A DNA stretch of 64,000 bases from positions 8,308,001 through 8,372,000 of the forward strand of contig CM102289.1 in the NCBI GenBank assembly GCA_046563655.1, in the 5' to 3' direction. Position numbers and translations under genes: made by a program. The notes under the pieces are model-generated. The model made no database searches, was not told the DNA's origin, and worked only from the letters and a program-made list of their open reading frames with translations. Source of the stretch: Yuukianura sp. NJ FZ-2021. Taxonomy: Eukaryota. This document shows, one piece after another, positions 31,503 to 49,569 of this stretch. How positions within the stretch are numbered: the stretch's first letter is position 1; the number at the start of each line of letters is the position of its first letter.

Positions 31503-33231
31503 ATGTTCAAAAAAGGAGGACTTCACTTACACACCTTGAAGTTTTTAGTATTTTTGTTTTTCTTTGGCCTTTGTGTCATTCTGGGTGAATGCAACGTTCC
31601 AGTGTTTACAGCGAAGGAGGTGGAAGCTATCAATAAGGTCGTTTGCTTACAGATTTTGAATTACTTTTTAAATTGTATTTTGAGCATTTTGGTTCATTGA
31701 ACCTACTTAAACATGTTTTTTTCTGGAACCAGTTGAGAAATGCGGTAGGTTCTAAACTGACAGCTCACTACATGCAGTCTGATGCATATTTGATCAAGTG
31801 GCTCAAAGGTAAAAAATCTGTTAAACTTTTCATTTCTAAGTTGCAAAATCTACCTTAGGTTATCCCCTTCCGGGTCAAATGTCAACTTTTTTCCAACAAA
31901 ATTCAAGAATAATTAGTGTCTTTTCTTTTGCTTTGTCAGCAAAAAAGTTTGACCACACGAAGGCAAAAGAGGCCCTGGAAAAAGTAAGCGAGAAAAGAGT
32001 TTTTAAAAAGAGTTAGTTTATGTTATAATTTCCTTTTGCATGTTAATTCAGCAGTTACGAAATACTTTGCGAAGTTTTAAACAAAAACCTATGTCTATAA
32101 TTATTAGACACTCCAATGGCGTAAAACCGTCGACGCAGATAATCTTCCAAGTTATGACTTTGGGCGAGAAATGACCAAAGGATACGTTTTTGATTTTACT
32201 ACAGCAAAAGACAAATCTGGAAATCCAAGTACATTTGAAACTTTTCATTTCTTCTTGTCTAATTTCGCTATGAACTTCAGTGAAATGTTGAGTTAAAAGT
32301 TCTGTTTCAGTTTTAATTTTTTTAGTCAATCATTGCAAAGTCTCTGATTAATAATAGTTGTGCTGATGCCATTCGGTGACTGGGACATTCGTCGTATGGC
32401 TATCCAGGGAAAAGTGTTTACTGAACTGAGCCTGCGCATGGATTACATGGAAGAAACAGCAGCCCAAATGTCATTTAATGCTACTAAAAATCCCTCCAGT
32501 TTGCTACTGGCTGACTTGGTGGGTTTTTCATTAAGACAGCACGCTTGTACAGGATGTGGGTAACAATATACAAAAGTTTATGATTGCGAGTGTAAAGGAA
32601 ATTATTACAGAGGAGTTTCTAACTTATGAAATGGGCAAAATACAAAATAAATGGCAATTGAAAAGACGGGGTCAGAAAATATCCTTGCCATTTGTTATAG
32701 TCATTGCAAAATTCTCCTATTGGGTGGATTTGGCAATGAAAATAGGACATCAGACTCAGAGTTAAGGAAATTTTCTACCCCATTTGTGCAACTGCCATTT
32801 GTTTTGTATTTTGTCCATTTCATAAGTTAGAAACTTCTCTGTAGTGAAAAAAAATGGCCTTGTCCACCTTTACTTTCAGGTGTTCCATATTATCTGAACT
32901 GGGCCATACACCATGAAAAGCACTATCCGTACAACTTTTACAGAATCCTCTCCATGAATAGTAAGAAAACAACTAAAATCTAAATTCAAAAATTCACTTT
33001 AAAAACTTCAATTAAAATTTATGATTTAATTACCATGCAATTCCGTATTTAGCGCCAAGGATATTTGACCCAATTCTAAGTTTGATGAAGCCATTAATGA
33101 CAGAGTCGACGCAAGACGCTTTACGGGTCGTCGGGTATGACCGAGAAGCACATGCCAAAGAAATTGCGAAATATGCAGATCTCGATCAAATTCCAATTCG
33201 TTTTGCGGGAAATAAGAAAGTGAAATCATAA
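31503..33231 (+). CDS. SEC14-like CRAL-TRIO lipid-binding protein with N-terminal signal peptide (7 exons, 277 aa)
   Basis: Exons 31503-31637, 31733-31808, 31940-31983, 32108-32228, 32358-32555, 32880-32960 and 33053-33231 are all GT-AG and phase-consistent (834 nt). Motifs: DAYLIKWLKAKKFD..A..ALEKTLQWRK (CRAL-N), KDKSGNPI, LLLADLVGFS, HEKHYP....I..MNTPRIFDPILSLMKPLM, DQIPIRFAG. Confidence 0.9.
32608..32841. mobile_element. Tc1/mariner-type MITE in intron 5 of the CRAL-TRIO gene
   Basis: Highly similar TIRs of ~80 bp (cagaggagtttctaacttatgaaatgggcaaaatacaaaataaatggca... / ...tgccatttgttttgtattttgtccatttcataagttagaaacttctctg), flanked by TA on both sides. Confidence 0.88.
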
Positions 33232-35728
33232 GTAGTTAGTATATGTCCATAAGCACTTTGTTAACACTTAGCCTAACATTCTGTGACAACCGAATTCAAC
33301 CGAATAGTTAGTTGATTCAAATGTAATCCAAGGCTGAGGTTGAAGCTTAGTGGAGTAGTGCTTAGGGAAGTAGTTAATTTTGGTCATTTTAATTGAAAAG
33401 CTTCTCAATTGCTAATTAAATCTGTAAGTTGTGCTTTTGGAATTAGTTTAGAGCGTGAGTTTGATCGAGGACCCTGAACTGTGGTTTTTCAAGTGGAAAC
33501 GGGAATTTGGAAAGGATTAAATAATGAAACCAGATTTTGATTTTAATTTGAACTTGAAGTGACAAGCTAGTTTGAGGGGAAACATTGTTTAAGAGTGGTT
33601 ATGATTAATGATTTAGAGGGGGAGGAAAACCACTCTCTCACTTTTCTAAAAAGTGCTTAGCAGAAAGCTTTATTTCCAAAAATTTGAGTCCCCCTCTGCT
33701 CCTGTTTCAAAAGATTTTCAAAAAAGATTTGTAGAATTTTGGGGGACTAGAAAAGTAGAGTCTGATTAATGAAAAGTTTGGTTGAGTAAACTTATGTCAC
33801 TTTGCATTGAGTTTTGAAGAGAGTCCTTTTAATTACTAATTTCAAAATTCCCAACTTGTCAAAAAATATTTTTGGTTTTGACAACCACACGTACTTTTGT
33901 GGTGGTAGCTTACTCCACAAAATTATGCCTTTAGAAAAACTTTTAAAAAAAAATACGCTCCAAAAGTTTTTTTGTGTTGGTAAGTACTAGAAGCTTAAAG
34001 TAGTTTAGGTTAGTGGATTCCTTCACGGACTTTGTTGGTCTTTGGGCTTGGCTTTAGGTTCAGCTCAAGACAAAAGACTTTTTGAACTTAATTTCCTGCT
34101 CAAGTTAAACATCAACAAAGACGCTGAAGAGGACAAAGTCTTCCGCTTGAAAGTTCAGACCAAGAAGCAAACAAAAACTTTAATGTTAATTCAATAAAAA
34201 TTGAAGTAGGTTGTGCTAAAGTTAAGCTCAAGACTTAACACAAGGCTTTTGGCGAATTAGAAAAGTTTTAGCTTCTAAAAATAGGAGAAGAGTTCAAGAA
34301 AACAGAATTTTTCTTTGTGTAAAGTGATCCACTCATTTTCCAACAAAAATCGACAACAAATAAAAAACATAATACGCAATATACAAAACTGTTTTTTATT
34401 AACAGAAAACCAAATTTTTAAAGGCGTTTTTCGAAGCTGAATGCAGGAAACCGTTTAGCTACAATTTTTTTGAAAGAGAAAATTTTCAAACAAAATTGCT
34501 TAGAAGAATATTCGATCCTTTTGAAGTTGTAACACAAAGGGAATTGAAAAAATGAAAATGGATTTCAAAATTTTCAAAATGTTTGCATTGTATTTTGCGA
34601 AACTGCGATAAGTAAACAATACGCACCGCTTTCCCTCTTGTTGCCGTAATATTGCTTCAGTTTACAATGGAATTTGCCGCCAGGCGTCTTTTAAAACAGG
34701 AAATGAACCAAAGGCTGCTCAATTTTGGAAGTTTGCTTTTGGAAAACTTCATTTTTTCGTTTTTGGCAGGATTTTGATTCTGGATTTCGTGTTTACCTTG
34801 GCCATTACCAACGGCATAGTCTCTGCTACCCTAAAAGTGAAAGTTTTGAAAACAAGAAACTAAATTTGTTGGCCTTCCACGCCCAAACACAGTGGTCTCC
34901 AACACCAAATTGGTTTTCATCGACCTTTTTGAAAATTGGCGGTTTTGTGTGCAGGTCGTGAGTATGATGGGGCGTTTGGAGCCAAAATTGAAAGTAATCA
35001 AGGCCCCTGAATCCTCCCTGCTGCTTCCTTTGAGTTATTATTCAATCATTTTACCCCCAACATCCCAATTTCCCATCCGATTGCTTTCTCCTCCCCCGAG
35101 TGTAATTGAAGTACAATGGAAATACAAAGTTCGTGGTTTAGGCTAGTTTAACCTAACCTTCAAATTTTCCCTCCTCTCTAACCTAACTGACTCAATTATT
35201 CCCCATTTCATCATGTCATATCCTCATCAACTTAGGGGGTGGAAAATGTCTTCGTCAGGAACTAACTATACTGGAACCAATTTCAGAAAATTTTTCAAAA
35301 TACCGCGAGAGATCAATACTGAACCCAGACTTCGTTTGAGTTAATGCGTAGCGCGTCATCCAAATGTGTGTTCCTAGTTGAAACGATTTCAACAAACCAT
35401 GCATAATGGTAAAAACGGTAGACCTTCGATTGGATTGTATTGGATTGGCGGTTATGACCTTCTACGGACCTAAATATCTAGTAAAGAATTTGAGCACAAT
35501 TGGAAACAAATTGAAGAAAAAACTGTCGGAATTGAAGTTATGTACAGATGATCATCACATGAGTGATCGATTTAAAAAACCATTTTTCTTTGAACTAATT
35601 TGAAGACAAGCTAAGCATAACTAATAAACTTTTCAATGTCACTTTTTTGTTATTTAAATTACCCAACCTATGCGAGGCCACTTGCTTTTACACACTTGAT
35701 GGAACAGAAAAAACATGATGAATTTTGG

Positions 35729-35735
35729 TATAAAA
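35729..35735 (+). promoter_or_regulatory. Putative TATA box of the GH135-like gene
   Basis: TATAAAA about 80 nt upstream of the ATG at 35811. Confidence 0.45.
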
Positions 35736-35810
35736 TATGTCAGAAAAATTTATGGAAGGACACACATTTCAAGCTACCTTTCCAATTCCAAAACATTCAC
35801 CAAATTCACA

Positions 35811-36732
35811 ATGCTCGCTCTACTTTGCTTCTTCGTTGTTTTCACCGCTTCACTCCATCAAGGACAAGGTAACAAATCTTAAAATTTTAAAAGTTCCAAA
35901 AATTAAAAGAAAACATGGCTGGGAATTTTTCAGTGTAATTTATTTTTTTTTAACTTCCAGCTTTGCGTAATTTTCTGATTATTTTTTTGAAATGTTGAAA
36001 TATTCTTTTAAAGCTGTCGAAACCATGATTCCACTCTACGTTTATCCAAGTAATGGCGCATGGACACCGCTCATCGACGCATATAATGCACAAACGGAAA
36101 AAATTGGCGCATGGGTAATTGTTAATCCACGTAACGGTCCTGGCGACACCATTGATTCATCATACACCGAAGGAATCCAGACTCTGCGCAACGCCGGATT
36201 TAAACTTATGGGCTACGTCCATACTGACTACGGCAGAATTGACATCAACACGGTAAAGGCCGCTGTGTACAAATGGACAATATACTACGAAGGAATCACT
36301 GGAATTTTTGTTGACGAAATGGACAACGTTATGAGCGATAAAGCATTTTCATACTACAACGAACTCAACGACTATATAAAATCTAAAGGATTTGAATTTG
36401 CCGCTGGGAATCCAGGAACAGCTATTGCTAAGGGGCTGATCAACATCTTCGACACGACTGTCGTTTATGAAAACCGGGGATTTCCAAGTGATGCTCTGTT
36501 GGACCAAATTACTTTTCAAGGTCAAACGCCAGCCATTCCCGCCGATAAGTTTACAATCATGGCCTACAATGTTTCTAAATTGGACTCCAGCATGACCTAT
36601 GCTCTAGATAAAGTTGGTTACATTTATATGCAAACTCTGAATAACGATCCGTGGAACTACTTGCCTCCGCAGTCTTTTCTGGAAGATCAATTCCAATTTT
36701 ACGCAACCGGACAAATTCCAGATTCAAGCTAA
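35811..36732 (+). CDS. Secreted spherulin-4 / GH135-like glycoside hydrolase (2 exons, 258 aa)
   Basis: Signal-peptide exon 35811-35868 (MLALLCFFVVFTASLHQGQ, donor AAG|GTAACA) joins in phase 1 to 36014-36732. Spherulin-4 motifs IPLYVYP, VIVNPRNGPG, GYVHTDYG, GIFVDE, GNPGT and VVYE are all present. Confidence 0.9.
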
Positions 36733-37302
36733 TTTTTAGCATTTGACCTCGTGAGCTTATGTTGCCAGTGGTGTTGTATAAATTTGTGTTTAAAAAATAA
36801 AATCAGTGTTTTTTCTGCACTAGTCATGTGAATGAGTCAATTTTAATTAATTTCACTGGTTTGTCACCGTATCTGGGATTTTTTATCAGTTAGGTACGAA
36901 TTCGGTTCATGCGGGCATGATGTTAATATTGACATTAACGTCACACCGTTCAGTTCTACTAATAATAGCGCCGAGGGCGTTAGCTTTTGTCAGAAAGTTA
37001 ATGGATTTGGAAAAAGATTTTGATAAAACTGTTGATCTAAAGACAAAAATTGGTCAGATACTGCTGTAAGTATTGTGGCTCTCAACTTTTTACAAAACTG
37101 TTAAAAAGCTTAATGCATTGAATACCCTCCGCCAGTTACACGCAGGAAACCGCTTTTGCACAATTCTACTTTTTTTCCAAGAGAAAGTCTAAAAAGCTGT
37201 CGCAAGGTGAGAGAAAGTTTTCAATTGTTTTCATAAAACTATTTTTTTGTTTCAAAATTTGACTATTACGTAATTTGTTTGTTTTTATTTTTTCAGAAAA
37301 AA

Positions 37303-38001
37303 ATGAGTTTGTCGCATCAGGAGGATATGGTGCGGTTGCGAAAAATTTTCTACGGTGTTCTCTGTACCGGTTCCATACTTGGTGTCATCATGGTGACCTT
37401 GATGCTGGTCTACACTTTTCAGTACGGCGGTGGATGGAGCTTTAGTGACCCTGCAATGCGTATCAACATTCACATTGGCATGATGCTAATGTTCATGATT
37501 TATCTTCAAGGTCATGCGTCTTTGATCTTCCGGATTTTACCGAACACACCTAAAACTAAAGTGAAATTGGTCCACGGTGGACTCCATTTGCTCGGATGTA
37601 TTGGATGCTCCTTTGGATTTTACGCAGCAGTTTCAATCAACGACAATACACCGTATTCACTACATGCTTGGCTTGGATTTGCTGCAGTGTCGCTCTACTA
37701 CATGCAATTCTTGGCTGGGTTTATATCATTTCTGCCTCCAATGACTCCTTTGAATGTGCGACTATTTCTACTGCCAATTCATAAGGTTATGGGTCGAAGT
37801 ATTTTTACGCTGTGTTGTATTGCCGCTGCAACTGGACTTATGATGAAGGCAATTGGAACTTTCGGACTAACGTATTCATCACTGCCGAGTCCAGCACTCA
37901 TGTTCAACTTTGCTGGAATTTTTCTCGTTTGCTTTGCAATTATATTTGGAAATTTAATGGCTGATTTTCGCTTTCGTCGACCTGTAGAAACTACACGTTG
38001 A
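37303..38001 (+). CDS. Cytochrome b561 family transmembrane ascorbate-dependent reductase (232 aa, intronless CDS)
   Basis: Six hydrophobic segments and four heme-ligand His motifs (NIHIGMM, KLVHGGLH, YSLHAWLG, LPIHKVMGR). The ATG at 37303 follows acceptor tttcag (37296), and a 5'UTR intron donor is at 37207. Confidence 0.92.
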   Translation: MSLSHQEDMVRLRKIFYGVLCTGSILGVIMVTLMLVYTFQYGGGWSFSDPAMRINIHIGMMLMFMIYLQGHASLIFRILPNTPKTKVKLVHGGLHLLGCIGCSFGFYAAVSINDNTPYSLHAWLGFAAVSLYYMQFLAGFISFLPPMTPLNVRLFLLPIHKVMGRSIFTLCCIAAATGLMMKAIGTFGLTYSSLPSPALMFNFAGIFLVCFAIIFGNLMADFRFRRPVETTR

Positions 38002-41000
38002 AAAAAACTAGTTTATTTCTCAAATTTTGAAAATGTCGATCAGGGATTAATATTTCATTGTGTTTTAGTGTTAACAGTCACAATTTGTTTCAAAATTGAA
38101 AACTAGAAATAGAAATGGACATTTTATGTACAATTCCACCGGATTTTTGAGTTTTTAGTGAGGATCAGTTTTTATTTCATAATTTTAGCTAGAATTCGGT
38201 TGTTTCATTTTTTCGAGTAGAATGGATGGAAATTTTGGTTTGGTGGTTTTTTGAAAATCGGGAAACTGTTTTTTGAGCCTGCGTGAGGCAGGGTTAATCC
38301 AAATCCCCATGTAGCGATTTCATTATAAGCACTAAAGGATAGTCTCTATTCTTCTCCCTTCCCACACTCAAATCCTATGTTGGCTTTTGAGGATTACGAT
38401 TACGAAAAAAGAAGATTTTGCTTTCCCCTGACTCACTTTCTCATCCCCCACCACACAAAACTTCCATTTGAGAATTTTAGAAAAAAAGAAGAAGAAGGAA
38501 CCAATAAAAAACGGAAATAGAAACCGAATTCTTTATCTGCGGCGGAAATGAAAGATTCAGTTTGAATAAATTCCAAAATCTTACCAATTTAAGTTTTAAA
38601 CTTCTTCTTTATAAGATCACAGAATTTGTTAAACTTATATTATGGCGGTAGGCGCCAATTTTGAAAAAAGAACTGCTTTTTAAGAAAAATGAAAAAAGTG
38701 AAATTCGTATGTGCTGAAATGACTTTTGCTAAAGAATGAGAAATTTCACCGCCTCGTAGATTTTTATTTTTGTTTCAAGTTTCATCTATTTTGATGAGGA
38801 GTATTTGATGAAGCAATTCAGAAAATGTAAGGCTTCATTACATCAAATTTTTCATAAAAACTACTTATTTTTGAAACAGTGAAACCCATTTTTGGAAGGA
38901 AATTGCACACACCGGTTTCCTCTCCTGGCACTTTTCTGGGAAGTGTTCTCATAAAATATAAAATGAAACTGGACGATACTTCAAATAAACGCGCCTGTTG
39001 TGAGAAAGCACACGAGAGAAGGCTATAGTTATTAGGCAACATAAAATAAACTAGAAAGTTATGAGAAGCACAGTCGCGGGCAGTTTTGAAATTCTAAAGC
39101 GCACACTATTTTCAAAAACGACGTGAAGTAGGACTTGTATGGCGATGGTTTTTGACAAAAGTATCGCTACTTTTCAAAATTTCCATTTTGTTTAAAATGC
39201 AAGTCCAGACTCGTTCTCGGTCTATTTGCTCAACGGATTCACCATAGTCATCACTTTCCTCATTAGAACTGGCGTTACTTTCTCTCTGAGTTTCCTTTGT
39301 AGATACCGTAAAGCTTCCACTAATAGCCGGCCTCCAATGAAACCCGGCTTCCTATACAGGCCAGGTCCAAGGTTGTTTAAATCGTGTTTGTTTTTTCTTA
39401 ACAGGTTTTACCATAATTCCTTTTTTCAAATTTTTAAAGGTTAGTTTTTTGAACCGCACGTCGGACACGGTTACGTTGCTTAGCAACTTGAAATCAAAAC
39501 TATGACTCGGCGACGTTAAAATTCAAACATTTCAAAGCATTATTGAGAAAATCAGCAAAATTCTTCCGAAATTCCTCCAAAAGTTGTTTTTTTCTTGTTT
39601 TTGTTTTATGAAAAGTTAGAGATAAGGCATAACCTGTTACGGCATTTGTATAAATGTCCACTACAGCTACCTTGGGTAGCAAATATAAATAACAATCTAG
39701 CCAATTACTTTATGTTTTACGGTATTCCACAAAATTTAGCTACTTTTTGAAAAGTTAAGCGCCAAGCATCAGTCCCAGATGACTGATTCCTATGCGGTGG
39801 TCTGTAATTGGTAATCATTAGGCAGCGGCGGCAGGAGAAAACCGTGAATTTGTCCAGAAACCGTGGAAGCATCTGCTGGTTGTTCTTCAAGTTAGTTCCA
39901 CACAACTGAACTTCGTATGCAGTTCAAAGTCTCTCGGGACTAAAAGATCAGAAGAACAAGAACAAAGATGCAAATAGTCACTTGGAGAATATTTAAATAA
40001 TAAATTAGGCCTACACAACCATCTTAGACATTCAGATCATGTAAGTAACGGCGGCAGGGTTTGAAAATCTTCTACAGCGCCACATTTTGAATCTTCCCAC
40101 CACCACATGAGGGTTTGTCTAATGGAGATTCATTACTGAACCTTTGAACTTTGTAGCGTGAAAGCCTACCCAGTGTCCAAGGGGACCAAATTTCCGAAAT
40201 TTCTCCCCCATGCACAAAAATTTCAAATTTTCCACCTCTCTTGTTCTGTTACACGCATTTTCAGAAGTTCCACTAAGAATGTGAATAAGACAGATGTGAA
40301 TAGGAAATTTTGAAGAAAAAAAAAGTCGTTTTTGGAAATAAAGGAGGCTGGAAAATGCTTTCACTTTATGCCTAACTTTCTCCTTCACCCTCCTCGCCTC
40401 TTAACATTCGATTTGGACACATCAAGTTCTGCTGGACGTGACATCCCCCTTCCGTCGTCATTCTTCCCATGGACACGTCTAATTTCTCTTCATTGATGTC
40501 CACTTGGGGAAATTCAATTGGGGTCCATACAGTAGTAGGCAAGGAAGTTCAGAAGAAATGCAGAAAAAAAGTTGGATTGAAAAGAAAATGAGATTTCCCA
40601 TTGTGCAGGATTTACTTTCTCCCACATCCACTTTCACTTTCTCCAATCCCTTTTTCTAGCATAACCTAACCTTAACCTAACCATAGCCATAACCTATCCA
40701 TCCTCCCTCTATTCCATTCTCTAGAGTGTTCTGGACCCCCTGGTGGATCCACCGGGGTCACTTTTGGCACTTGGCGGCAGTTCCTGAGGTCACGCAGTGA
40801 TGTGTCATAGTTTTTCGAACCACTCTTGACACCCAAACTTACGCTCCATACTAATACACTAACTTTGTAAAAAAATGCAAACGTACTAAGATAAAAGAAA
40901 ACTAAAGTATACATAACTTTATTTGCGCTTGCTAGTACAGTTTTCCGAAAAAAAATTTCCCTTTATTGATTTTGTTCCTGTGCAAAGATCTTTGAAAAAA

Positions 41001-41359
41001 GAGAGGCGTCTTGTTTCTACATTTCAAAATCTAAATTTTGAAATTTGAGTGAAGCATATCGTTTGTCAATAAAAACTTAGAGGTAAAAATGCAGAAGCTG
41101 TGTTAAATATTAGGTACCAATGCCCAAGAAATTCGTTTGTTTTAGATTACTGGTGAATGTTCTCCGTAAGATTTATTTATTTTACGTAAGTTGGTGCTAT
41201 TTGCAATGATAAATCATCTTCCAAGAATTTTGAAATTGAGTCATGGTAGACAAAGCGACTCAACGACATTGGGTTTCGGTTTTGCTACTTATAACTTTAC
41301 TTGGATGCATTACAAGTTTATTCCAAAAACTAGCTTCAACGGAAACGCAGCAAGACAGA

Positions 41360-42901
41360 ATGAACTCTGGTCACATTTTGGCAATACTGACCATCATTAC
41401 GATCGTCGGTAAGGAGAAAAAACCAACAATATAAGAACCTTCGATACTCCGATTTGGAAAGCCTAAATTTCCAAATCATTTTGAATTTTTTGGTTCATGA
41501 ATATATAGGTATCGGGGTGGGTGCATTGCCGCGAACCGTTTCGGGTGTTTCAATTGGCACAAATGAAGGCGATGTAATCATCACGAGAAAGTCGTCGAGT
41601 AACGTACAAGTGACTTCGTCGAGTAACGTAAACGTGACTTCGTCGAGTAACGTAAGCGTGACTTCGTCGAGTAACGTACAAGTGACTTCCCGTCAACAAT
41701 CGTATATTACTAACCGCCACGGTAAGAAATGCCGGATAAATGGTTCCGCTTACGTCTCTGTGGTACAGAGCTTGCCCACCTCAATGAATACCCGGACGCT
41801 ATTGAACGTTACACAGCAAATCACAAATGGGAAGCTGTTACCTGGCGACATCATTTTGAAACCTGGTACCCATGGGGTGGGTGCAGTGCCAGAAGCCGCG
41901 ACGAATTATCCAATATCTCGGGACGATGTAATCACCAGGGCTAAGTTTTGGAGTAATTTGGGAGTTCCTTACAGTCAAACAGCGTATCATGCAGATCCCG
42001 ACGGAAAAGAATACCGAACAGATGACTCCGGTTACGTCGCTATGGTTTGGAAACTGCCGACTTACATGAATATCCGGATGATACCGTCCTTCACAAAACC
42101 AATCACAAAAAACCAGCTGTTACCCGGTGACATTATTTTGAAAGCTGGTACCCATGTGGTAATTTTTGACAAATGGGTAGATACTGCCAAAACAATGTAC
42201 TGGGCCTATGAACAAACACCACCAGCCACCAAGTATCACCAAATCAACCGGTACCCGTACTTGGGTCGCAGTGGTTACTATCCGTATCGATACTACAACA
42301 TTGCTCAAACTGATGCAGCGTAAGCGAAACAATACTAATATTATCTCATAATTATTTAAGTAATTGAAATAATACATTAAATTAAAAACACACTTAAAAA
42401 GTTTCTATTTGTAGAAGTACAACAACGCCTGCAAGTACTAGACCTTGCAGTTGCCCGCCATCGCCATTGAATGTTGCGACAAACAATGCTTCGTCATCAG
42501 TACTTTGTGCAACGGAAATGCAGGGAACTTGTGATCCAAAGGGCCTCTACTACTGTGCCTACCTTAATGGATGGAATAACAACCAGGGGTCCCTTAGCAC
42601 ACTTACTGTTTGCCAGGAAGGATGCTACTACTACTTGGGCAAGTCCAATGCAAGATGCAGGAACGAAGATTTTCAACAAATTATGGAAGATGCTCAAAAT
42701 AGAGCTAGTACGGGACGTCGATCTGCGGAATCAGGCTCGCAGTCAGAAGACGTTCAAGAAGGCGAGGAAGTTCCGTGTGACGATTTGCAATTTAGTGGGC
42801 AAAATGGCATGGGACCAAGCGGTGCACTTCGTCCACAAATTTTTCCAAAATTTTGTATTTTCATGCTTACAGTAGTGCCTAGTGTTTTCAAAACCTTTTG
42901 A
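41360..42901 (+). CDS. NlpC/P60-fold (actinobacterial-type) protein with catalytic Cys replaced by Asp, a partial N-terminal duplicate, a Cys-rich domain and a GPI-like tail (3 exons, ~448 aa)
   Basis: Exons are 41360-41408 (donor G|GTAAGG), 41509-42319 (donor GC|GTAAGC) and 42415-42901 (acceptor tttctatttgtag), and the phases are consistent. Signal peptide MNSGHILAILTIITIVGIGVGA. The domain ISRDDVITRAKFW...VPYSQ...YRTD[D]SGYVAMVWKL...LLPGDII...HVVIFDKW......YWAYEQTPP...YPYRY matches the YRxDCSGYVSMAW...LxPGD...HVxxF subfamily. Confidence 0.85.
41592..41689 (+). repeat. Coding 24-bp tandem repeat x4 (SSSNV[Q/N/S]VT)
   Basis: Unit tcgtcgagtaacgtacaagtgact repeated four times, varying only at the sixth codon. 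Confidence 0.95.
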
Positions 42902-44475
42902 ATTTGTTTGTATTACCTGTAGCGGCCACAGCTATGGTGGTTTTAAATTGTTTTACATCAACTTCACATTTGTTTCAGGCTTTTCACTAAAAAAGAATTT
43001 CCATTTTACGACACCATTTACTAAAAATTTTAAAAACAAACCATAAGTAGCCGATATAACTTAAACAGATTAAATATTCTTTATTTTATTTGTCGAATAT
43101 TTTCTTGGTTATCCAGAATTGAAATGGATATCAATAAATGAGTTCGAGTTTTTTTTAAAAATCTGTCAATTTAGAAATTTTTTTTTTTGAAAATTAAATT
43201 TTGAAAAGGTTTGCTCAAAAAAAAAATGAAAAAAGTACTCAGGTTAACTAGTGAATAAAAATAGTTCCTTAGACATTTGTGAATTAGAAGCGTGATTTTG
43301 AAAATTAAAATTTGTGAATTTCAGAATCGATTTTTCTGTTTTGACATTTGAATGAAACTAATCCTGGTGTTGAAGTGTTAAACGGCATGAAAGAGGGCGG
43401 CGGCAGGATATGAAATACGGAATCGGCACGCCGTGTCGCTTTTGCTCGTTTGTATCTATAAGCTATGTGTTATGCTACAAAGTCTAAGAATATTTCGGAG
43501 GGTGAAAAACGATTTAGAAAATTCATGGACCATTTAACAATACTTTGGTTGTACTTCCAAGTCTTTTTTTGCACCTCTTAAGGCTTAACGGAAATTGACA
43601 AGATGAATGCTTCGTATTAGGCCTCTTCTGGACACAAATTTGTGAGGAACAAAAAAAGCTAAGAGATTTCTAAAGTAGATTGAAACAGCAGAGACAAACT
43701 ACAAATTTTCTGCGAATTTTGAATTCACAAACAAGCGAACAAATAAATCTGTTGACGCATTCAGATTTTTCGTATGAAACTAAAGGAAACGAGTTTCATG
43801 AAATCTTTAACGAACTGAAAGCTTAGTTTGCATTCGCCAAAGATCACTTTCTTTGAAAAAGAAGAAGAAAAATTGGCAATTTTGATCTTTTGACAAGATA
43901 GTTTCTCTTGCTAACTAGGATTTTCTTTTATCAAAATTTCTAAGAAAACGCGCCTCCCTCGTTTGTAACTTTATTTTCTTCAACTCCATTAAATCTGAAA
44001 AAAAAAATCCTTCTTTTTCACTTTTTGAATTTTTTTTTTTGAAACTCACAAACCGATTATTTATGACTTATAGAGACAGAGTTCACAGCTTACAAAAATT
44101 CAAAAGAAGTCCATTCCCCTTTCATTTAAAAAAACTGTTTTTTCCTTTCTATCTTTTCACATCCATGACCTTAGCTTTCCCTATTTTGGCACAACAGACA
44201 ACAGCTTGTGAAAAAAAGCAAGTTCAGAAATTCAAATCCAATGTTTCAAAACTGAAAAACCCGCCTTCCGCTTCATGACACTTTATAAAAAAAGGAAATT
44301 TATTTTGTTGAGAATATTAAAACGTTGACTCAATAAAGTGCAAGTTAAACGCAAAAACAACATTTGACTTTCCCTTTTTCCTAAAGTGCGACGTATGTGA
44401 CATTTTGCGTACCAAAAACTGACAGATTTCTAGGACAATATTTCTTTTTTGTCCAACTGCCACTTTCCGCAAGAA

Positions 44476-45263
44476 CAGTCTTGTACTGTCTTCCGTCTTC
44501 CAGTCTTCACGTCTTCCGAAGAGAAACAGCTGATTCGTCTTCCAGTCTTCCGTCTTCCGTCTTCCAGAGATTGGTTCGTCTTCCGATCTTCCGTCTTCCG
44601 TCTTCCAGAGAATTTTTTGTCTTCCGATCTTCCGTCTTCCGTCTTCCAAAGAATTTTTTGTCTTCCGGTCTTCCGGCTTCCGTCTTCCAGAGAATCTTTC
44701 GTCTTCCGGTCTTCCGGCTTCCGTCTTCCAGAGAATATTTTGTCTTCCGGTCTTCCGGCTTCCGTCTTCCAGAGAATATTTTGTCTTCCGGTCTTCCGGC
44801 TTCCGTCTTCCAGAGAATTTTTAGTCTTCCGGTCTTCCAGGCAGTGTTTTGTTCTATAGTCTTCCGACTTCCATAGGCTGTTTTGTCTTCCAGTCTTCCG
44901 TCTTCCAAAGAATTTTTCGTCTTCCGATCTTCCATCTTCCGTCTTCCAGAGAATTTTTCGTCTTCCGATCTTCCGTCTTCCGTCTTCCAGAGAATCTTTC
45001 GTCTTCCGGTCTTCCGGCTTCCGTCTTCCAGAGAATCTTTCGTCTTCCGGTCTTCCGGCTTCCGTCTTCCAGAGAATTTTTAGTCTTCCAGTCTTCCGGC
45101 TTCCGTCTTCCAGAGAATTTTTAGTCTTCCAGTCTTCCGGCTTCCGTCTTCCAGAGAGTTTTTCGTCTTCCAGTCTTCCGTCTTCTAATCTTCCGGAAGT
45201 CGGAAGAATGAAGCCGGAAGACGTCTTCCATGGAAGAATCTTCCGGAAGACAGTACATCACTG
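44476..45263. mobile_element. Non-autonomous hAT-like element filled with a ~40-bp gtcttcc-based minisatellite
   Basis: 20-bp TIRs cagtcttgtactgtcttccg / cggaagacagtacatcactg (18/20 match). Perfect 8-bp TSD cgcaagaa at 44468-44475 and 45264-45271. About 16-17 internal units like gtcttccggtcttccggcttccgtcttccagagaatatttt. Confidence 0.88.
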
Positions 45264-48845: not shown

Positions 48846-49569
48846 ATGTTGCTCAAAACGGTGACAATTAAAACCAAAGCAAATAATATTAACAAGAGAA
48901 TGGAAAAATTACAAAAGCCAAAATTTGGAAAATTGAAAGTTTTTGTATTTTTAGGCTTTTAGCTGCACCTTATTCAAAAATGTGACACAAATGAACAAAT
49001 TGAACGCGATCCGAAAATTCAGTTTCGCGCCTCCACCACTGGACAAATACGTTCAAGTTTTGCCAATCATCAAATTGTCGCCAAATTATCCCAACGGTAA
49101 AATTTTACTTGGAAAATGGAATTATGGAAACTATCAAGGCAGATACACTGGACTCATTGAGAAAATGCCGGTTGACCCCAACGAGCCTCAAGATCAGTTT
49201 CGTTCTACACTGGAAAAATTTGCACAAAAGCTCGTTCCGGCTGAAATCCGGGGTTACGTTACGGATGTAGAATGTAAAGGAATTTTGAAATTCGACGGTC
49301 CACCGGATTCACTGGAGTACATTTGTGTCGCCAATGTCAAGAGTCTCATTGACATCAAAACAGTCACTTTTAACAAAGATTATCCCTACAACTTGGAGTG
49401 GTTTGATGTAAACCGAATTCCATTTGACAAGATGCCGGCAGATGACGAAATTTGGTATCCACTCATCATGCAACAAAAATACATCAAAGGATTCTTCAAT
49501 TTTGGTGGATTGGAGGCACGGTCAATCAAGTCGTATCACATTGTAGAGGTTACCGATTTGCAATTATAA
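48846..49569 (+). CDS. MTH1/NUDT1-like Nudix-fold protein with a degenerate Nudix box (probably 2 exons, ~209 aa)
   Basis: Main exon 48955-49569 follows acceptor ttttgtatttttag. Candidate first exon 48846-48860 (ATG..ACG|GTGACA, phase 0) is less certain. The C-terminal WFDVNRIPFDKMPADDEIWYPLIMQQKYIKGFFNF and N-terminal KILLGKW..G...GRYTGL resemble MTH1. Confidence 0.8.

Follow-up and report, generated by a model that had tools for sequence, protein, structure and literature searches.

A predicted secreted GH135 (Spherulin-4) hydrolase gene in an arthropod-like genome, probably acquired from a microbe

In Aspergillus and in the insect pathogen Metarhizium, the polymer galactosaminogalactan serves adhesion and virulence. 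Hydrolases of microbes, from GH135 and related families, are under study for use against biofilms. The founding enzyme of CAZy family GH135 is Sph3 of Aspergillus fumigatus and A. clavatus (structures 5c5g and 5d6t). PMC12054363 and PMC8224951 describe Sph3 as membrane-bound and as encoded in a five-gene cluster for galactosaminogalactan synthesis. Here we describe a gene of the same family, located at 35811-36732 on the forward strand of a 64,000-nt stretch of Yuukianura sp. NJ FZ-2021 DNA (assembly GCA_046563655.1, contig CM102289.1, positions 8,308,001 to 8,372,000; hereafter the window). The window's protein has the Pfam family, the (beta/alpha)8 barrel, a similar size and a single catalytic domain in common with Sph3. 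Unlike the Sph3 gene, however, the gene in the window has no synthesis genes around it; it is a solitary gene of an animal genome, and the leader that it encodes looks cleavable. We are highly confident that this is a real GH135-family gene of an animal. On balance, we also favour the view that an arthropod-like animal carries it in its nuclear genome as a single-copy, functional gene for a small secreted (beta/alpha)8-barrel GH135 hydrolase, and that the gene was horizontally acquired and its product acts like Sph3.

The other relatives resemble the window's protein in different ways. The Spherulin-4 of the springtail Allacma fusca (P0030) is an arthropod copy that, like the window's protein, has a hydrophobic leader and keeps the DE and E residues. 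It is 36-39% identical, but carries a long basic insertion past the DE motif that the window's protein lacks; its label stems from automatic annotation, and our literature search found no paper on the Allacma protein. Prokaryotic Spherulin4 proteins make up the bulk of the closest sequences listed (30-41% identity, 63-98% query cover) and have the conserved columns in common with the window's protein, but they are often multidomain or tandem (FN3, CBM-like, two to three Spherulin4 domains) and intronless, and none is close enough to name a donor. The 809 foreign genes of Folsomia candida, 229 of which have CAZy domains (BMC Genomics 2017, PMC5490193), include acquired enzymes with a comparable history, in which a glycoside hydrolase of microbial origin has become established in an arthropod genome and possesses introns as well as a secretion signal. 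Last, Ega3 (GH114), the PelA hydrolase domain (GH166) and GH191 are TIM barrels with an Asp/Glu pair that act on GalNAc or GalN exopolysaccharides (PMC12054363), but these are other families, and the window's sequence and fold matches are specific to GH135.

The gene consists of two exons, and its features are as follows.

35729-35735, forward strand: TATAAAA box read from the sequence, 82 nt 5' of the ATG; putative promoter element
35811-35868, forward strand: exon 1, 58 nt with the ATG at 35811, encoding MLALLCFFVVFTASLHQGQ and ending with the first base of a split codon
35869-36013, forward strand: predicted phase-1 GT-AG intron of spliceosomal type, 145 nt, 22% GC
36014-36732, forward strand: exon 2, a complete Spherulin4/GH135 domain in an uninterrupted 239-codon frame with a TAA stop
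36313-36318, forward strand: codons of D101-E102 (GIFVDE), aligned to Sph3 GIFFDE with D166
36469-36471, forward strand: codon of E153 (VVYE), aligned to Sph3 VVFE with E222
36796-36801, forward strand: AATAAA hexamer read from the sequence, 64 nt 3' of the stop; putative polyadenylation signal

The family assignment was tested against Pfam, and the match to PF12138 (Spherulin4) was strong: E 2.6e-43 and 148.7 bits against a cut-off of 30.2, with residues 5-218 covering positions 3-229 of the 239 in the profile. Thus, an earlier sequence-only reading of this DNA, which had called the gene a Spherulin4/GH135 member with its catalytic acids intact, was borne out. NCBIfam held no meaningful match for the GH135 protein. 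Among solved structures, the sole sequence match was A. clavatus Sph3 (chains 5c5g and 5d6t; E 1e-15, 61 bits). The alignment to 5c5g places GIFVDE opposite GIFFDE and VVYE opposite VVFE, so that the two proteins line up at the DE-motif Asp and at the Glu that follows strand 6; the conversion from chain to Sph3 residue numbering assumes an offset of 50, which we infer.

An AlphaFold2 model built from a 29-sequence alignment (mean pLDDT 95.6, pTM 0.92) displayed the strand-helix alternation of a TIM barrel. When this predicted structure was searched with Foldseek, 5c5g came first (E 4.2e-15, TM 0.81/0.76, identity 23-24%) and 5d6t was also on top (TM 0.80-0.81). The runner-up entries were generic glycosidase barrels with E values around 1e-05 (the next 8.7e-06) and TM scores around 0.5 (the next 0.48), and PelA of P. 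thermotolerans was a weak match at rank 50. When 289 domains of the family were aligned, the majority residue was present in the window's protein at all 21 of the strongly conserved columns checked; D101 is conserved in 288 of the 289 domains, E102 in 241 and E153 in 268. E167 of Sph3 is said to be involved as well, in work by Bamford and colleagues from 2015. Together, the alignments and the predicted structure show a Spherulin4/GH135 protein with a modelled TIM-barrel fold, an intact Asp/Glu catalytic pair and a leader in an exon of its own.

What is known of Sph3 suggests how such a protein could work. The D166A mutant of Sph3 loses galactosaminogalactan hydrolysis (bioRxiv 10.1101/113696). 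PMC12054363 describes Sph3 as a retaining alpha-N-acetylgalactosaminidase that prefers the acetylated polymer and uses Glu222 as its acid/base; the catalytic Asp is printed there as 'Asp196'. We propose that the window's protein would be secreted and would act as an Sph3-like, retaining, endo-acting alpha-1,4-N-acetylgalactosaminidase, with D101 as the nucleophile and E153 as the acid/base. Its substrate may be a GalNAc-rich extracellular microbial exopolysaccharide, such as fungal galactosaminogalactan met in the diet or on fungi that attack the animal, and its role could be either feeding on fungi and bacteria or defence. By analogy with Sph3, a GalNAc polymer is a plausible but tentative substrate. 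The sequence-only reading had also included Pel. According to bioRxiv 10.1101/113696, Sph3 can bind to Pel, yet established Pel biofilms withstand it; because Sph3 itself leaves mature Pel biofilms undisrupted, the Pel part of that idea appears weaker.

The alternative that survives best accepts a real secreted animal protein of GH135 fold, but assigns it another alpha-linked hexosamine glycan, from microbes, from food or from the animal itself, in place of fungal galactosaminogalactan or Pel. In its favour, Sph3 is the only characterised member of the family and is just 23-24% identical to the window's protein, which stands alone on a long branch of a large and diverse family (3644 relatives) with many multidomain prokaryotic members carrying FN3 or CBM-type modules. 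However, the catalytic residues and all 21 conserved columns are kept and the fold match to Sph3 lies far above those to other glycosidases, which suggests at least similar reaction chemistry. We regard a different glycan as rather unlikely.

The family is large, and its members similar to the window's protein are mainly prokaryotic or environmental. When 1.84 billion cluster representatives were scanned in full with HMMER, 3644 relatives passed a threshold of E<=0.001 and 31 one of E<=1e-30, and no match listed from that scan exceeded 46% identity. The top scores belonged to tandem-domain proteins, and the best single-domain match was the metagenome protein P0013 (42%, 146 bits). Single-domain prokaryote-type or environmental members scored 120-146 bits, whereas fungal Sph3 scored 61 bits; this difference argues against an Sph3-type fungal donor and against simple opisthokont inheritance. 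On these scores, a prokaryote-type branch appears a likelier source than the fungal Sph3 branch. A search with a profile recovered 151 proteins at E<=1e-10. Nine of the 120 listed carried an organism name: eight were bacteria or archaea (Aquificota, Deltaproteobacteria, two Nitrososphaerales, Nitrosotalea, Polyangia, Planctomyces and Armatimonas), and the sole named animal was the globular springtail Allacma fusca, whose P0030 carries the NCBI/UniRef label 'Spherulin-4'. P0030 groups with the metagenome proteins P0013 and P0060, and the start of P0013 resembles a eukaryotic signal peptide, after which comes a basic stretch.

Other searches returned few and distant relatives. A word-indexed search with the protein alone gave one 40% match, a Logan protein with a C-terminal tail that we read as bacterial in type. 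A single-protein scan of 185,579 prokaryotic species genomes reached 31% at best (Ilumatobacteraceae), together with a partial Clostridium match. The JGI metagenomes contained no relative when scanned with the window's protein, and one 36% relative (L003) when P0013 was the query.

A dockerin-linked GH135 in an isopod gut-microbiome paper was assigned to bacteria; therefore, the family occurs in arthropod-associated bacteria. PMC10531923 includes a secretome table of the nematode Heligmosomoides polygyrus in which VDP33044.1 is named 'Spherulation-specific family 4', and this protein is known by name alone. The sponge biomineralisation 'spherulin' and the Lepidoptera 'spherulin-2A-like' proteins bear names other than Spherulin-4. 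Horizontally acquired carbohydrate enzymes in soil arthropods are already known, and GH135 is not discussed for animals in the literature searched: we found no paper describing an animal GH135/Spherulin4 gene, and GH135 goes unmentioned in the MetaInvert paper and in the Folsomia candida genome paper (main text and two supplements). The sequence-only reading had placed the family in microbes rather than in animals generally. This needs correcting: GH135 is not strictly new to animals, since there is a springtail database record and a nematode protein by name.

To place the window's protein within the family, a FastTree tree of 178 domains was built, as well as IQ-TREE trees (LG+C20) of 68 of the 289 domain rows (36 hand-picked and 32 random); the rows were without fungal, amoebozoan or nematode sequences. 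In a quick IQ-TREE run, the nearest sequences by path were P0013, the Allacma protein and P0060. In the careful run they were, in order, P0013, the Allacma protein, P0063 and P0060, and the window's protein was sister to the Allacma protein with a support of 20/0. A 12-row group that adds a Planctomyces/Armatimonas-type clade had a support of 50/71. Forcing the four arthropod-like rows into one clade cost 0.49 log-likelihood units (AU test, p 0.488), so a single arthropod clade is neither shown nor rejected.

We consider a foreign, microbial origin probable, with an old transfer that is perhaps shared with springtails. We propose that the gene entered the lineage from a microbe of the prokaryote-type branch, and that it would since have gained its signal-peptide exon, its phase-1 intron and a host base composition while diverging strongly. 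The domesticated horizontal transfer suggested by the sequence-only reading thus holds in part: a foreign origin is the most economical reading, but the trees resolve neither the donor nor the number of transfers. The alternative is that early eukaryotes already had Spherulin4, that the gene was inherited vertically and that it disappeared from most animals, with no transfer at all. Vertical descent would agree with the presence of the family in fungi, in the arthropod Allacma fusca and, by name, in a nematode, as well as with the clade of four that the AU test did not reject. It agrees less well with the distance of fungal Sph3 (61 bits, compared with 120-146 bits for prokaryote-type and environmental members), with the careful tree, which puts the arthropod-like sequences beside the Planctomyces/Armatimonas-type group at a support of only 50/71, or with the absence of anything above 46% identity among the matches listed, a patchiness that would need very many losses. 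For these reasons we find vertical descent improbable.

The structure of the gene itself is eukaryotic in character. The peptide of exon 1 has a hydrophobic core followed by a small-residue motif, and thus resembles a signal peptide as far as sequence can tell; the leaders of the related P0030 and P0013 are likewise hydrophobic at the start. The intron donor is AAG/GTAACA at 35869, and 36013 is the last base of the acceptor TTTTAAAG. This base is identical to the one that closes exon 1, so the range 36013-36729 translates to the mature protein. Both the splice and the secretion signal are predicted. A tblastn search of the 64-kb window found the gene in single copy. Every statement that the earlier reader had made about the letters holds: the catalytic exon is uninterrupted and lies behind a separate phase-1 signal-peptide exon and a TATA box, the coordinates given for the GIFVDE and VVYE acids are exact, and the secreted two-exon model is supported at this level.

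Another reading is that the transferred gene is silent or in decay, and that it is intact by chance or lost its transcription only recently. Such a relic could also have a long branch and, among the variants listed, as many amino-acid changes as silent ones. Decay is harder to reconcile with an open frame of 239 codons, 21 of 21 intact columns and a high-confidence model, or with the joint presence of a TATA box, a signal exon, canonical splice sites and an AATAAA hexamer. Moreover, the contig of a second organism keeps the same layout of promoter, exon, intron and exon at about 94% identity. We judge a relic to be still less probable than vertical descent.

Residence in the animal genome was examined from the neighbouring genes, the base composition and independent sequencing runs. 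The other host-type genes are as follows.

9.4-12.2 kb of the window: leucine-rich-repeat (LRR) membrane protein gene, upstream of the GH135 gene
37303 (ATG), 570 nt past the GH135 stop: cytochrome b561 gene, PF03188 at E 9e-25, eukaryotic
52.2-52.4 kb of the window: GRAM-domain exon

The sequence-only reading had placed the gene in an animal-type genome, and the adjoining eukaryotic cytochrome b561 gene agrees with this; as a lead only, Arthropoda predominate in the Atlas cluster closest to the b561 protein. The window is gene-poor, AT-rich DNA with 36.5% GC. The hydrolase exon has 43% GC and a third-position GC (GC3) of 44%, compared with 43% and 41% for the cytochrome b561 exon and 47% and 45% for the LRR exon. 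The locus is present in five DNA runs, of which four were aligned (X1-X4): three are from one sample of organism A, and one (X4) is from organism B in another study. Contigs cover 30 of the 30 bins of 32000-44000 in X1, X2 and X3 and 27 of the 30 in X4, where three uncovered bins and one near zero (0.89) span 41223-42826; nothing is drawn from this gap. A coverage break had been named earlier as the mark of a chimeric assembly, and contigs cover every bin over the gene and its flanks. Two contigs, one of 541 nt in X3 and one of 447 nt in X4, begin in the non-coding DNA upstream, cross exon 1 and the intron and reach the start of exon 2. The X4 contig, which supplies the second organism's layout, differs from the window by 13 substitutions and 15 gap letters. 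Among the contigs listed, none bridges the GH135 3' end to the b561 gene. In one haplotype of X1 and X3, 97 intronic nt (35874-35970) are swapped for 85 other letters while both exons still align, a difference that fits an unconstrained intron.

The family occurs chiefly in microbes, but a microbial contaminant or a chimeric assembly is nevertheless very improbable, given the AT-rich spliceosomal-type intron, the host-like GC and GC3, the adjacent b561 gene, the contigs that run into non-coding animal-type flanks in four runs from two studies, and the absence of a close prokaryotic relative in 185,579 species genomes (best 31%).

Several observations weigh against the explanation that we favour, that of a functional, horizontally acquired and Sph3-like enzyme. 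First, the window's protein forms a long branch (1.05 compared with a median of 0.46 in FastTree, and 1.88 compared with 0.64 in the careful IQ-TREE) and belongs to no supported clade. Second, the family also occurs in eukaryotes, in the form of fungal Sph3 and an Ascomycota-rich cluster, and slime moulds carry it as well; these members leave room for ancient vertical descent with many losses. Third, the proposed intron contains an in-frame ATG at 35992, from which an unspliced transcript would give a leaderless protein. Fourth, by our own codon reading, the variants listed include four amino-acid changes (R40S, G74T, R75K and D120E) and three silent ones, and purifying selection is thus undemonstrated. 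Last, an identity of only 23-24% to the sole characterised enzyme means that substrate specificity may differ.

If the gene functions as we propose, its product, a secreted GH135 encoded by an animal, would be the first enzyme of this type to be described on the host side. It would link horizontal gene transfer, in a testable way, to fungus feeding or antifungal defence in arthropods, and it would add a CAZy family to the microbial enzymes that soil animals have domesticated. According to PMC8224951, the galactosaminogalactan of Metarhizium robertsii is needed for adhesion, for appressorium mucilage and for topical infection of insects. The defence reading gains interest because this pathogen relies on the polymer for infection. 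A more speculative and, in our estimation, unlikely extension is that springtail-type soil arthropods have an old, fast-evolving clade of secreted GH135 proteins, captured from gut or soil bacteria, which would strip the galactosaminogalactan 'glue' of fungi such as Metarhizium as an antifungal weapon or would aid digestion of the hyphal matrix. Beside the domesticated, cell-wall-hydrolase-like protein of a neighbouring gene, it would then form part of a microbe-matrix toolkit assembled by the same exon-capture route.

That neighbouring gene lies 4.6 kb downstream of the GH135 gene. It is a second microbial-type gene, resembling NlpC/P60 proteins, and its model is our reading of the sequence.

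41360-42901, forward strand: NlpC/P60-like gene
41360-41408 (approximate), forward strand: exon 1, signal-peptide-like, beginning MNSGHILAILTIITIV; a phase-1 intron then extends to 41508
41509-42323, forward strand: large exon
42414-42901, forward strand: possible third exon, Cys-rich with a hydrophobic tail

The large exon contains a 24-nt Ser-rich tandem repeat and a C-terminal domain that is 34-42% identical to actinobacterial proteins (best E 9e-26). One of these matches carries PF00877, and some are labelled NlpC-family cell-wall hydrolases (Actinosynnema, Actinomadura). The open frame itself matched nothing in Pfam, NCBIfam or PDB sequence searches. The RTDCSG of eight out of eight aligned homologues reads RTDDSG in the window, with Asp in place of the catalytic Cys, whereas the histidine of HVVIF is retained. 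Two microbial-type genes that appear to have in common the layout of a signal-peptide exon, a phase-1 intron and a foreign domain would therefore flank one native gene. Taken with its neighbour, the GH135 gene would be a clean example of foreign domains gaining a signal-peptide exon across a phase-1 intron.

Some minor observations concern the surroundings of the gene. By our reading, the cytochrome b561 gene has an apparent non-coding first exon to about 37207 (AAG/GTGAGA) and an 88-nt intron at 37208-37295 that ends in TTTTTTCAG, 6 nt before the ATG at 37303. In all four runs, contigs also join 35301 to 37290 with 26 unrelated letters between, skipping the whole GH135 gene. This joint was considered as a gene-less allele and set aside; because its short side is 21 letters and both sides carry the low-complexity TTTCAGAAAA, we took it as a fork or a chance match. 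Summed contig depth rises 5- to 15-fold over neighbouring bins at 32401-33202 and 39218-40019 in all four runs, which suggests dispersed repeats on both sides of the locus.

An Rfam search found nothing in the window. Further along, a tandem array at 44534-45185 has a 41-nt unit in 15.6 copies with 86% matches, as well as higher-order periods of 259 and 300 nt. It has long open frames on both strands, including a 275-aa frame that lacks a Pfam match. A 204-aa open frame at 48955-49569 on the forward strand, which matched nothing in Pfam or NCBIfam, may be an exon of an uncharacterised gene.

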